Source of the DNA: a virus
Taxonomy: Duplodnaviria > Heunggongvirae > Uroviricota > Caudoviricetes
Length of the DNA stretch: 53,981 nt
Reading direction: 5' to 3' (one strand)
IMG/VR virus record: IMGVR_UViG_2529292919_000008
The notes beneath the pieces are model-generated. The model saw nothing but the letters and a program-made list of their open reading frames with translations. It searched no databases and was not told where the DNA came from. The position numbers and the translations under genes were made by a program. Shown one piece after another: positions 9,593-13,670 of the stretch (position 1 is its first letter; each line of letters starts with the position of its first letter).

Positions 9593-10249
9593 TCAGCCGC
9601 CGGACGCACTGCCGTAGTTCACTCCGGTGATCACCGCCACCGCCGCGGTACGGCGACGACGCCAGTTGATCCAGCGCTCCGCACGGATGGCCACGCTGCC
9701 TGTCTGGAACATGGAAACCAGCTCCACCGGGGACGGCGTGGTACTGTCGCCGGTCGGCTCAGACTGCATTTCCAGTGATGCCTCGCGGGACATATCCACT
9801 GCCACGCCTCCGTCATCCGCCAGATAAATATCCGGGGCATTCACCAGCACCAGCTGGTCACCCACGTACTGGGAGACAATCACCGGCAGCCCCTGGAAGG
9901 AGCCACCCAGCAGGGTCATGTCCGGGTATTCCTTCTGACCCAGCGCATTTTTACGCATGGACAGTGCCAGGGCATTGGTGCTGGACATCAGCCAGACCGC
10001 ACCGGTGGGCTGCAGGTTTGCTGCCACAAACTGTCCAAACGCAGCCTCTGCATCCGCATCCGGGTTACCGGTTGATGCCGTGCCCTTCACATCATGGGTG
10101 ATGGACGCCGGGGAGACATCTGCCACTGCGGCTTTTTTCGGGTCCACAAAGTCTGTATCCAGACGCGCCACCACCGCTTCCGCCAGCGCATTACGGACCA
10201 GTGCATCAGCAGCCGGACTGGAAAAACGGATCAATTCTTCCGTCAGTAC
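9593..10249 (-). pseudogene. 3' fragment of the HK97-type major capsid gene, split by the Mu-like insertion
   Basis: Translation ...LTEELIRFSSPAADALVRNALAEAV...FQTGSVAIRAERWINWRRRRTAAVAVITGVNY looks like an HK97-fold capsid C-terminus. The frame continues upstream only into Mu-end sequence and resumes in frame at 46661. Confidence 0.75.
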
Positions 10250-10410
10250 TGTGGGGTAGTGATCAATTCTGGGCGGAGTTAGTGCAGCCTGGTAGAACCG
10301 GCAAGCCTTGTGTGGCGCGGGGTGTGGTGATTTAGCGTGATTCTGGGCGGATTTGTGAGAAATGACCAAAAACGCTTTTTTTTGCGCTTTTTTCTGGGCG
10401 CTTTTGATCT
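10250..10410 (+). promoter_or_regulatory. Left end (attL) with three transposase-binding-like repeats
   Basis: TTCTGGGCG occurs at 10267, 10341 and 10391, and the same motif recurs at the right end. The third copy is preceded by GCGCTTTTT, as in the right terminus. Confidence 0.6.
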
Positions 10411-10561
10411 GGTTCTGCTACAAACTTAACGGGTTTTAAATGCTTTTAAAAAGAGTTTTATCCTTACCCGTTTTCCTCAATTTGTTCTCATCTGTTGTGT
10501 TCGGTTTTGTTGTGGTTATTGCTGATTAGCTAACAGCACACGCCCCGCCAAAACGAGGCGC

Positions 10562-11209
10562 TTATGCTGATTTCTTGTTTACAGGCTTAGTTTCTTGCTC
10601 CGGTGTGACGGGAACGCGATCACCTGGTGTTCCAGCACAGAAAATGGCTTTGGCGCGGCGCAAAATCTCTTTGTCATTTTCCTCATCGCCAGCTAATGCC
10701 ATGCAAACAGCGTCTTTAAGCGATTGCCTGATGTTCAGGCTTTGAATGGCCTTTCTTTGCTCCTCAAGTTCGCTATCGGCTTGCTTAGTTTGCCTGGTGG
10801 GTTGCTGTAGGCGTTCCAAGATTCCTTTAATGCCCATATCGCATATTGCACTTATCAGCTGTTCCTTATCTTCTGTGGACGCTCTTTTCAATAACTCGTT
10901 AACTAGCTCGTTTGTAATATCGGGAGAAGGCTGCGCTGTTTGATTTGATAGAGAACTTTCTTTGGCGATGGGTTCCTCACCGTAAGCGAGCCAATTTAAG
11001 CTCACTTGTTCTTTATCTGATATAAGGCAAGCTATTTTAAAAGAAGGCTCTGTTCCTTTATGAATGTAGTTGTTTAAGGTTGAAGGGGGGATTCCCCAAT
11101 CACTCGCAGCAGTTCTGACACTACGGTTACCTATCAGCTTTACTAAACGCTCTCTGAAACTTTCTTTTTCCCGGTCGACAAAAGAAAAAGCATCATCATT
11201 TCTAGTCAT
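10562..11209 (-). CDS. Putative repressor (Mu c-like position), HTH DNA-binding protein
   Basis: 215 aa, transcribed leftward next to the left end and divergent from ner. HTH-like segment RTAASDWGIPPSTLNNYI...SLNWLAYGE. Confidence 0.5.
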   Translation of the reverse strand: MTRNDDAFSFVDREKESFRERLVKLIGNRSVRTAASDWGIPPSTLNNYIHKGTEPSFKIACLISDKEQVSLNWLAYGEEPIAKESSLSNQTAQPSPDITNELVNELLKRASTEDKEQLISAICDMGIKGILERLQQPTRQTKQADSELEEQRKAIQSLNIRQSLKDAVCMALAGDEENDKEILRRAKAIFCAGTPGDRVPVTPEQETKPVNKKSA

Positions 11210-11231
11210 TTTTTCTTTCCTCTATAACTTA

Positions 11232-11259
11232 TTGATTTTAATTGCAAAAACCATATAAA
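11232..11259 (+). promoter_or_regulatory. Candidate sigma70 early promoter (TTGATT, 16-nt spacer, TATAAA) for ner-A-B
   Basis: Hexamers read directly in the c/ner divergent intergenic region; not validated. Confidence 0.3.
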
Positions 11260-11342
11260 GACCAAAATCAAAAAGAAAATACAAAGAAAGGGCTATTTTT
11301 GCTTTACATGGGCTACATATGGATCAATACTTATATCCGAAG

Positions 11343-11375
11343 GGATAACACGGCGGTGTTATCCGCACGGATAAC
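11343..11375 (+). promoter_or_regulatory. Operator-like palindrome GGATAACAC-N4-GTGTTATCC plus third GGATAAC half-site
   Basis: Perfect 9-bp inverted repeat at 11343-11364 and an extra half-site at 11369-11375, just upstream of the ner start. Confidence 0.45.
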
Positions 11376-11391
11376 TTTTAAGGGTAACCTA

Positions 11392-11628
11392 ATGATGGTT
11401 AGAAATGAAGTAATGAACAAAGACTGGCACCGCGAGTACATCGTTGCCGCTGTGCACACCAAAGGTTTTACATTGCGTGAACTTTCTGAACGCGCTGGTC
11501 TAAAAAAAGACTCTTTAAAAAATGCACTGTATCGCTCATGCCCTAAATATGAACGCATCATAGCCGATGCTATTGGTGTGGAACCTGCGGAGATCTGGCC
11601 AAGCCGGTATGCCAGTAAGGCGGCGTAA
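11392..11628 (+). CDS. ner: Ner-like DNA-binding regulator
   Basis: 78 aa. Matches Mu Ner (...IWPSRY... C-terminus). Stop overlaps the A start (TAATG). Confidence 0.8.
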   Translation: MMVRNEVMNKDWHREYIVAAVHTKGFTLRELSERAGLKKDSLKNALYRSCPKYERIIADAIGVEPAEIWPSRYASKAA

Positions 11629-13670
11629 TGTTTTATTCAGCCAATGAGCTGGCCGGTCTTCCTGGTTTGCCCGGTACAGTTCAGGGGGTGCGCTGGACGC
11701 TCAATCGGATCACAGATACGCACCCGGAATGGAAGCGCAAGCGCGAAGGCACCAAAGCATTCGAGTATCACATCGACTGCCTGCCCGCTGAAGCGCAGAA
11801 AGTTTTACGTAAGCGCCTGACCCATCAGGTTCTGGAAGATGCACAACTGCCCGCCGTGGTTGAGCAGAAGGCAGTTAAAAACGTCGCCGTTCGCGATGAA
11901 CTGGAAGTGATGGTCAAATGCCCGGAACTGGCATTACGCGAAGTCCAGGCACTGACCGACAAGCAAAAGGCCATTGCTGATGCGCGGATATTGCTGGCTA
12001 CTGAAGTGCATAAACTGCGTGAATACGCCGGAATGACCAGGAAGGCCGCGTTAAAGCACATCGTTGATGGTGTGCGCATGGGGGCGTTGCCTGACCGCAT
12101 TATCGAAGCAGCGAATACTGCAAATGCACGTCAGGGAAAGCGAACCGGTGTCAGCACCGGCAGCCTGGATAGCTGGTACTCCAGCTGGGTGATGGCGCGC
12201 GGTGATGCCAATCAGTTACTGGCGTTACTGGCTCCCGGTCATCATAAGGGAACACCGTGGGAGCAGGTCTGGTGGTTGAGCGATTTCTTTATGTTCTATC
12301 GCTCATGGAAGCGCCCGACCGTTGAATACGCTTATCGCGAGTTTTCAGCCTGGTGGCATGAGAAACACGCGAATGATGCGGGAATGCTGGCGGCACTGCC
12401 TTCAGTTCACGCAGTAAGACGGGTGTTAAGCAACGTCCCGGTGATTGTTAAGGAGCGTTTCCGCTCCACCGGTTCAGCCTGGCGTTCGCTCAATCCTTTT
12501 GTGCGGCGCGACTGGAGCACATTACCGGTTAATGCGGTATGGGTCGGGGATGGTCACTGTATGAAAATGACTGCGTTTAACCCACTGACCGGCAATATTT
12601 TCCGGCCAGAAGTGACGCTGGTTATGGATGCGGGTCAACGCTTTGTTGTGGGCTGGTCACTATCCCTGTCGGAGAACGTGATAGCCGTTGCTGATGCGTT
12701 ACGTTACGGCATGGCGCAGCACGGGATACCGCTGATTTATTACTCCGATAACGGGGGCGGTGAAAAAAACCGGGTGCTTGATGCCGATATTACCGGGATT
12801 CTGCCCCGGCTGGGTGTGGAACATCACACGGGGATACCAGGTAACCCGCAGGGGCGCGGGGTGATTGAACGGGCAAACAAAGGAATACCCAAAGACGTGG
12901 CTCTGAGTTTCCAGACGTACTGCGCAAGGGATGCAGACAAGGAAACCGTAATGATGCAGCAACGGATTATGCAGTCAGCCATTAAGGCCACCCACAAAGG
13001 GAAAGAACTGACAAAACGGCAGGTTAAGGCGAGGGATGAAATCCCCACCTTTGAGCAACTGCTGGCAGCCATAGAGCTGGAGGTCAGACGCTATAACAAC
13101 CGGCCACACAGCAGCCTACCCCGCAAAGAGGATGGCGAATATTACAGCCCGGCAGCGTATCGCCGGAAACTGATAAAAGAGCAGAATGTTGAAATTGATT
13201 TCCTGTCGCCGGAAGAACTGCATGAAATGTTCAGACCGGAAGTGACGCGCAAAACATTTCGCGGGGAAATTCAGTTATTCAACAATATTTATTACTCATA
13301 TGAGCTGGCCGCAGAGCACGGGAATGAAGTCAGGGTCAGTTACGATATTCATGATGCAAACAGCGTCATTGTCCGGCGGGCTGATGGCTCTTATATCTGC
13401 GATGCCATCTGGAACGGTAACAAGGTTGATGCCTTCGCTAAACCAGTTATCGAACAAAAACTGGAGAAACGCGTCAGGGGCCGCATTGCACGGGCCACGC
13501 AGAAAATCGAAGAGGCTAAACGCGAGCTTACCCCGGCTATTACGCAGAAGCCTGACTTTAATCTGGGATATGGACTGGAACGCCCGGAGAAAAAGGAAAA
13601 AGAAGAACTTTATTTATTCGCATCTGAACGCGAGCGCAATTTAAAGAAAAACGGCACAAACAACCATTAA
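11628..13670 (+). CDS. A: Mu-type DDE transposase A
   Basis: 680 aa directly after ner. Translation carries WVGDGH and GIPGNPQGRGVIER segments that I read as the MuA-type DDE core; no search run. Confidence 0.9.
   Translation: MFYSANELAGLPGLPGTVQGVRWTLNRITDTHPEWKRKREGTKAFEYHIDCLPAEAQKVLRKRLTHQVLEDAQLPAVVEQKAVKNVAVRDELEVMVKCPELALREVQALTDKQKAIADARILLATEVHKLREYAGMTRKAALKHIVDGVRMGALPDRIIEAANTANARQGKRTGVSTGSLDSWYSSWVMARGDANQLLALLAPGHHKGTPWEQVWWLSDFFMFYRSWKRPTVEYAYREFSAWWHEKHANDAGMLAALPSVHAVRRVLSNVPVIVKERFRSTGSAWRSLNPFVRRDWSTLPVNAVWVGDGHCMKMTAFNPLTGNIFRPEVTLVMDAGQRFVVGWSLSLSENVIAVADALRYGMAQHGIPLIYYSDNGGGEKNRVLDADITGILPRLGVEHHTGIPGNPQGRGVIERANKGIPKDVALSFQTYCARDADKETVMMQQRIMQSAIKATHKGKELTKRQVKARDEIPTFEQLLAAIELEVRRYNNRPHSSLPRKEDGEYYSPAAYRRKLIKEQNVEIDFLSPEELHEMFRPEVTRKTFRGEIQLFNNIYYSYELAAEHGNEVRVSYDIHDANSVIVRRADGSYICDAIWNGNKVDAFAKPVIEQKLEKRVRGRIARATQKIEEAKRELTPAITQKPDFNLGYGLERPEKKEKEELYLFASERERNLKKNGTNNH

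Follow-up and report, generated by a model that had tools for sequence, protein, structure and literature searches.

The Mu-like prophage in the window (the whole stretch of 53,981 nucleotides that was analysed) carries, between its predicted early promoter and ner, an array of four GGATA/TATCC-type sites that alternate in orientation with a period of 13 bp (11332-11377). This array is probably the operator of Ner, a Cro-like early regulator, and would serve to throttle early transcription; we put the probability of this reading at about 0.65. The GGATAAC palindrome within the array is real and conserved and, judged from the way in which the sites are conserved among relatives, the array is functional. 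We infer Ner as the binder, its stoichiometry and its effect on transcription from comparison of sequences. The proposal provides a concrete candidate operator for the Ner of a widespread group of Enterobacterales Mu-like prophages, which includes those of E. coli (among them EPEC E2348/69 and O157 strains), the Yersinia phages vB_YpM_5/6, and relatives in Edwardsiella and Sodalis. To our knowledge, no dissection of the regulatory regions in this group has been reported to date.

The early control region

The flanking genes confirm the preliminary description: the locus is a regulatory region of a Mu-like prophage, with the repressor gene on one side and ner on the other. Position 10250 is the left end of the prophage (TGTGGGGTAGTG..., TGTGGGG...), and the same prophage, 99.5% identical over the region, is found in eutC of E. 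coli E2348/69. In the window it interrupts a capsid-like ORF (9593-10369, minus strand) that belongs to another prophage, and an ORF of 893 aa upstream of the prophage (6796-9477, minus strand) contains several near-identical segments of ~65 aa in tandem (DGRDYDP..VNDAVANIPQPADGKSLTPDDVRPMLEQMVKEAVSHIPVPR). Three TTCTGGGCGGA-type repeats at 10262-10420 are probably transposase end-binding sites. The GGATAAC sites themselves were rejected as end-binding (attL-type) sites of the transposase, because the TTCTGGGCGGA-type end repeats are unrelated to GGATAAC.

The repressor gene (10562-11209, minus strand) encodes a protein of 215 aa with a CI-type helix-turn-helix that matches PF07022 (E = 2e-6) and no other family; we treat it as context and not as the inferred binder. 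On the plus strand, ner runs from the ATG at 11392 (not 11393) to the stop at 11628, is preceded by a ribosome binding site AAGGGT at 11380-11385, and encodes 78 aa assigned to PF13693 (HTH_35, E = 9e-26). Downstream of ner lie the transposase gene, whose product comprises a Mu N-terminal DNA-binding domain (PF02316), an rve core and a Mu C-terminal domain, and then a gene for a MuB-like AAA ATPase. The array thus adjoins a Ner-family gene that heads the order ner, transposase, MuB. The DNA-binding domain of the repressor is not homologous to the PF02316 domain of the transposase; for an operator/enhancer of the Mu type, such homology would be expected.

The predicted early promoter Pe (11303-11331, plus strand) consists of a -35 hexamer TTTACA at 11303-11308, a 17-nt spacer and a -10 hexamer AATACT at 11326-11331, and its start is predicted (not mapped) at ~11338-11340. 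It is the sole sigma-70-like site that a promoter scan returned in 10380-11700. The -10 block GATCAATACT hardly varies, and a -35 hexamer 17 nt upstream is retained in all lineages examined. The palindrome had been placed in the divergent region; it is actually downstream of the predicted Pe start, in the ner leader, and the array as a whole lies between this start and the ner start codon. No face-to-face, Mu-like sigma-70 promoter for the repressor was found to the right of the palindrome, either by the scan or by eye. A possible -10 of a repressor promoter, the weak TAAAAT at 11240-11235 on the minus strand, sits in a conserved TTGATTnTAA block and is a perfect TATAAT in two relatives (L156/L157). 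Beside the repressor ribosome binding site there is a (T/A)TAAC element (11223-11228), which many lineages also have and which may represent an additional half-site of the Ner type.

Sequence and geometry of the array

By direct reading and pattern searches, positions 11332-11375 read TATATCC-GAAG-GGATAACAC-GGCG-GTGTTATCC-GCAC-GGATAAC. The perfect 9-bp inverted repeat of the preliminary description is present as claimed: it spans 11343-11364 and is formed by GGATAACAC (site b, 11343-11351, the left arm) and GTGTTATCC (site c, 11356-11364, the right arm) around the GGCG spacer at 11352-11355. A third GGATAAC had been reported 5 bp downstream; the copy does exist, at 11369-11375 and with 0 mismatches, and the gap that separates it from the palindrome is 4 nt (GCAC), not 5. 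This copy is part of site d, GGATAACTT (11369-11377), the first G of which is variable, being replaced by A in E2348/69 and the Yersinia phages. Sites c and d form a second inverted pair, GTTATCC-GCAC-GGATAAC. On the other side of the palindrome, site a (TATATCC, 11332-11338) is a weak right-half site (TATCC) that overlaps the early promoter at about -7 to -1. A repeat finder reports a 40-nt imperfect palindrome with 18-nt arms that are 83% complementary, within which site a falls, as well as a 26-nt direct repeat of TATCC-N4-GGATAAC. Relative to the predicted early start, the array spans ~ -7 to +38, and it ends 14 nt 5' of the ner start codon.

How improbable is such an arrangement? The full pattern, which was chosen post hoc, has a single match in the window when up to 3 mismatches are allowed, where 0.01 would be expected. 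The window contains 15 perfect inverted repeats with arms of at least 9 and a spacer of at most 10, compared to 2.2 in dinucleotide shuffles, so that in the 182-bp intergenic region ~0.0075 would be expected from the shuffles and ~0.05 from the window's own rate. For this reason the palindrome by itself is only moderately improbable, and we regard it as suggestive, not compelling. The heptamer GGATAAC is found 17 times in the window, whereas dinucleotide shuffles predict 4.4; apart from those in the operator, 14 copies lie singly and scattered, mostly in coding sequence and mixed in strand and phase. A search of the window for a second cluster of the motif returned none, only matches with 3 mismatches at chance level and the scattered single GGATAAC copies. 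Elsewhere in the window, two perfect palindromes of another sequence (AATGTTAAC-N9-GTTAACATT at 50333-50359 and CAGTTAACATGTTAACTG at 50440-50457), ~80 bp apart, share GTTAACAT/ATGTTAAC and could be another operator pair. For the GGATAAC array, what decides the matter is that other genera conserve it, as judged from the alignments described below.

Conservation among related prophages

Relatives were gathered via Ner, via an alignment of the repressor N-domain, and from E. coli genomes and phage records, which gave ~25 distinct relatives from E. coli, Yersinia, Edwardsiella, Sodalis and metagenomic phages. Their promoter-to-ATG segments, 24 of them distinct, align in register, and column information was computed over 18 lineages. 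The TATCC columns of site a hold 1.09 bits, the GGATAAC columns of site b 1.34 bits, and the columns of sites c and d 1.38 and 1.26 bits, respectively, compared to 0.64, 0.67 and 0.46 bits for the intervening stretches a-b, b-c and c-d. Conserved sites separated by drifting spacers are the pattern of a protein-binding array. The comparison with relatives that the preliminary description had proposed, with absence of the motif as its refutation, therefore came out in favor of the motif, the sites being conserved across the ~25 relatives; its wording "operator-like" is likewise supported by this conservation, by the drifting spacers and by the position at the early promoter.

Individual lineages illustrate the point. 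In Edwardsiella hoshinae all four sites are kept while GAAG, GGCG and GCAC have become GTAG, GCAG and GCGC; one relative (L029) keeps sites b and c around a CGCC spacer, and the Yersinia phage vB_YpM_5 keeps sites c and d. The TTATC core of site c is the best conserved of the four sites in the clades nearest to the window, and in one more distant clade GGATAAC replaces site c. Several flavours of the sites can be distinguished. The Sodalis flavour is TACCGATAACAC-N4-GTGTTATCGGTA, that of clade Q is AAAYTTGATAAC-N8-GTTATCAAATTT, and clade K has CGGATAACCC-type units, with three direct GGATAAC repeats (L164, L165) at which position and period are kept. In E. coli, Yersinia and Sodalis the sites are thus inverted, whereas every one of them is direct in clade K. 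The E. coli mcr-10 plasmid pMCR10_2641_2 also carries a remnant of the repressor-ner region of this family (L185, locus 596-1638), which has sites like those of clade K and is truncated by IS26 directly after ner.

Exchange of the repressor and ner modules

Among E. coli prophages, identical Ner and sites are found with repressor N-domains that are either ~97% or ~47% identical to that of the window, the palindrome being common to prophages with the window-type and with the LPYSTINNYFEK-type repressor. The block that remains co-identical with ner when the repressor module is exchanged is 11318-11391, and it meets the exchanged DNA within the Pe spacer; in many E. coli genomes, query positions 109-182 or 111-182 are matched at 97-100% (most at 100%), with the left part diverged. 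Conversely, the intergenic DNA that varies with the repressor lies to the left of ~11318, inside the spacer between -35 and -10. Position ~11318 appears as a recurrent recombination junction between immunity modules, and O157:H7 Z1825, among others, matches the left part of the window's region only. Because identical Ner and palindrome accompany repressor N-domains of only ~47% identity, and because the converse recombinant exists, the palindrome goes with ner.

The same association is seen between the flavours. Those designated E, Yersinia-type, Sodalis, K and Q are each paired with a distinct helix-turn-helix sequence of Ner; the clade Q Ner and flavour occur with three repressor classes (L166, L168, L182), and one clade Q locus has the window's recognition-helix segment STLNNYIHKGTEPSFK in its repressor together with a different Ner. 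The flavour differences are symmetric on both arms, which argues that they are selected. Site sequence therefore tracks the Ner helix and not the repressor, an association that is confounded by the physical linkage of the sites to ner, and the sites do not co-vary with the repressor (immunity) module as operators of the Mu type would. Towards the edge of the family, the TTATCC/GGATAAC sites are still present in a lineage with a Ner identity of only 40% (L172), and in Phytobacter, the Ner helix of which is quite different (61% identity), the promoter block persists and the GATAAC sites are absent. The recognition-helix motif STLNNY is found in every repressor of the family, and the GATAAC/TTATC core in every flavour.

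From the motif, the preliminary description had concluded that the phage probably has its own immunity specificity. This inference does not hold, given that the palindrome is unchanged beside both kinds of repressor N-domain and that a window-type helix occurs with another flavour: a motif that prophages have in common in spite of differing repressor modules does not attest to any one immunity specificity. Immunity surely does differ from that of Mu, because the CI-type repressor is unrelated to Mu c and not because of the palindrome. The array is best read, on this comparative evidence, as a Ner (Cro-like) operator and not as an immunity determinant. The lysis-lysogeny switch in this group consists of two exchangeable modules joined inside the early promoter, one comprising the repressor and the left operators and the other the promoter -10, the Ner sites and ner. 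Such a layout should help to annotate immunity groups and to predict cross-regulation between prophages.

Where might the repressor itself bind? Five copies of (A)AAGAAA(G)/CTTTCTTT were observed in alternating orientation, two in the 5' end of the repressor gene (11161-11169 and 11181-11189, coding FSF...KES), one at its ribosome binding site (11210-11218) and two upstream of the Pe -35 (11270-11278 and 11283-11290). The AAAGAAAG that abuts the Pe -35 is kept in every lineage, with every repressor class. We consider the AAAGAAAG repeats a candidate for the real repressor operator and/or for an enhancer bound by the N-domain of the transposase.

A Ner operator and its alternatives

If the array is the Ner operator, transcription from Pe after induction or infection would lead to Ner being made first; Ner would then fill the sites at about -7 to +38 of the predicted start, its occupancy would hinder RNA polymerase binding or promoter escape, and expression of ner, the transposase gene and the MuB-like gene would be throttled through negative autoregulation. 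Negative autoregulation of the early genes by Ner has been described for Mu and D108. The position of the array between the predicted Pe start and the ner ribosome binding site, like that of the Mu and D108 inverted repeats, speaks for this reading, as do the conservation of the sites over their spacers, the pairing of flavours with Ner clades across repressor classes, the high conservation of Ner among loci that keep the sites and the absence of GATAAC sites in Phytobacter. Against it, the sites adjoin ner, so that their co-inheritance is partly plain linkage, the geometry departs from that of the Mu and D108 repeats, sites persist in L172 at a Ner identity of only 40%, and a repressor that reads the core only would be compatible with the shared STLNNY and GATAAC/TTATC.

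This last point bears on the view that the array serves the CI-type repressor as an operator, exclusively or jointly with Ner, by analogy to the common use of OR by CI and Cro in lambda; in the lysogen, dimers of the repressor would then block Pe. A perfect palindrome that overlaps the predicted Pe start would suit a dimeric CI-type repressor, and with an unvarying STLNNY in every repressor class and the same core in each flavour, module shuffling need not break repressor recognition. We nevertheless consider this rather unlikely: the selected, symmetric flank differences follow the Ner clade independently of repressor class, the intergenic sequence that diverges along with the repressor is left of ~11318, the AAAGAAAG abutting the -35 and repeated around the start of the repressor gene is a better-placed candidate, and three direct repeats in one clade would be unusual for a symmetric dimer. 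Alternatively, the array could be an internal transposition enhancer bound by the N-terminal winged-helix domain (PF02316) of the transposase. In Mu, the N-terminal domain of the transposase recognises the operator region. The transposase encoded here has the Mu-type N-terminal DNA-binding domain, its gene is a linked neighbour of ner and segregates together with the sites, and, the repressor not being homologous to the PF02316 domain, an enhancer need not coincide with repressor operators. Since the two genes are adjacent and co-inherited, covariation separates Ner from the transposase N-domain only in part. The transposase N-terminus is, however, far less conserved than Ner between loci with the same sites (69%, 72% and 53% identity versus 91%, 97% and 82% for Ner in three site-sharing pairs), and the N-termini of the Yersinia-type and clade Q transposases are 68% similar although the flavours differ. 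The end repeats TTCTGGGCGGA are without similarity to the sites, even if they are read by a different subdomain, and the T-rich CTTTCTTTT repeats further left presumably resemble the Mu operator/enhancer motif more than the array does. We hold an enhancer in place of a Ner operator to be quite improbable.

Could the palindrome instead act as RNA, either as a 9-bp stem-loop that stabilises the early mRNA or as a c/d hairpin followed by UUUU that attenuates before ner? The leader is predicted to fold into a b/c hairpin (-18 kcal/mol, z = -3.0), b and c are paired in 89.7% of cells with three double-sided changes, and TTTT follows the c/d stem. Symmetric changes are, however, equally expected from a DNA palindrome, sequence conservation exceeds what pairing requires, the b/c pairing is largely broken in the Yersinia group and that of c/d in L029, and neither hairpin is possible with the direct GGATAAC repeats of clade K (L164, L165). 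The latter led us to reject an RNA hairpin as the general function. An intrinsic terminator or attenuator was rejected as well, because the terminator scan made no call at the array, c/d is without covariation, and clade K is unpaired; no Rfam family matches the leader. A function as RNA is thus very improbable, and the hairpin of some phages may be a by-product and not a conserved feature. Least probable of all, in our judgment, is that the array is a host-factor site such as a DnaA box, or a repeat that arose by chance and has no function. Site c with its spacer (TTATCCGCA) does match the strong DnaA box (consensus TTATCCACA) at 8/9 positions, and the window has many perfect inverted repeats (15). 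The bases that complete the box fall in the variable spacer (GCAC, GCGC, GTCC, AAAT), so that the 9-mer TTATNCACA is not conserved as a unit, only TTATCC being kept while the last three positions vary, and the DnaA box was rejected on these grounds; chance is at odds with four phased sites conserved across genera.

Within the Ner operator reading, a more specific version would have the array built from ~GGATWATCC pseudo-palindromic units of 9 bp at a fixed 13-bp period, the orientation of which can be flipped in evolution without loss of function, perhaps with an additional role as transposition enhancer. Such an enhancer role is conceivable in this lineage, where repressor and transposase N-domain are unrelated. 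We regard this version as unlikely. If it were true, Ner monomers would polymerise along the DNA and take their register from spacing, not from dimer symmetry. D108 Ner is reportedly a monomer that oligomerises on DNA, which would fit an array of several sites.

Comparison with Mu, D108 and lambda

The array represents a known kind of element with a new sequence, and the general understanding of such switches is unchanged by it. In the Mu record, an inverted repeat AGCTAGCTAAGT-TTTTAC-ACTTAGTTAAAT (~1029-1058) directly follows the annotated early promoter (991-1028), which the GenBank annotation describes as "part of Ner binding region", and ner starts at 1099. The D108 record contains a perfect inverted repeat, CCGTGAGCTAC-TTTATAGC-GTAGCTCACGG (N8), that ends 25 nt 5' of the ner ATG. 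The GGATAAC motif is absent from the equivalent regions of both phages, in agreement with the earlier remark that it is not the Mu sequence. The Mu and D108 inverted repeats reportedly correspond to the Ner sites defined by footprinting (Tolias & DuBow 1986; Kukolj et al. 1989). The geometry of these two phages (two inverted repeats of 11-12 bp, 6-8 nt apart, over ~30 bp) is not found here, and the repeats of clade K are even direct. The geometry of Ner sites may be variable in the family, as Mu and D108 already differ from each other.

As in D108, the Ner of which is 50% identical, the window has a perfect inverted repeat just 5' of the ner ribosome binding site and 3' of the early promoter. 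The sequences are unrelated, and two 11-bp arms with an 8-nt spacer and a 19-bp period in D108 compare with 9-bp sites, 4-nt spacers, a 13-bp period and 3-4 sites in the window; moreover, the D108 repressor is of the Mu c type while that of the window is CI-type (PF07022). With Mu, the window shares the placement of an inverted repeat after the early promoter and before ner, as well as the gene order repressor, ner, transposase A, B. It differs in that the Mu repeats are 12 bp long with a 6-nt spacer and another sequence, and Mu Ner is only 43% identical to the Ner of the window. Mu Ner has also been reported to repress the repressor promoter, whereas the putative repressor promoter of the window is ~100 bp away from the array and such dual control is not evident.

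A final parallel is with Cro and OR of lambda, where, as proposed here for Ner, a small early helix-turn-helix protein acts on repeated, pseudo-symmetric sites at its own promoter and early transcription is lowered. The Ner family (PF13693) is unlike lambda Cro, and while Cro and CI share their operators in lambda, the evidence here points to separate sets of sites for Ner and the repressor.
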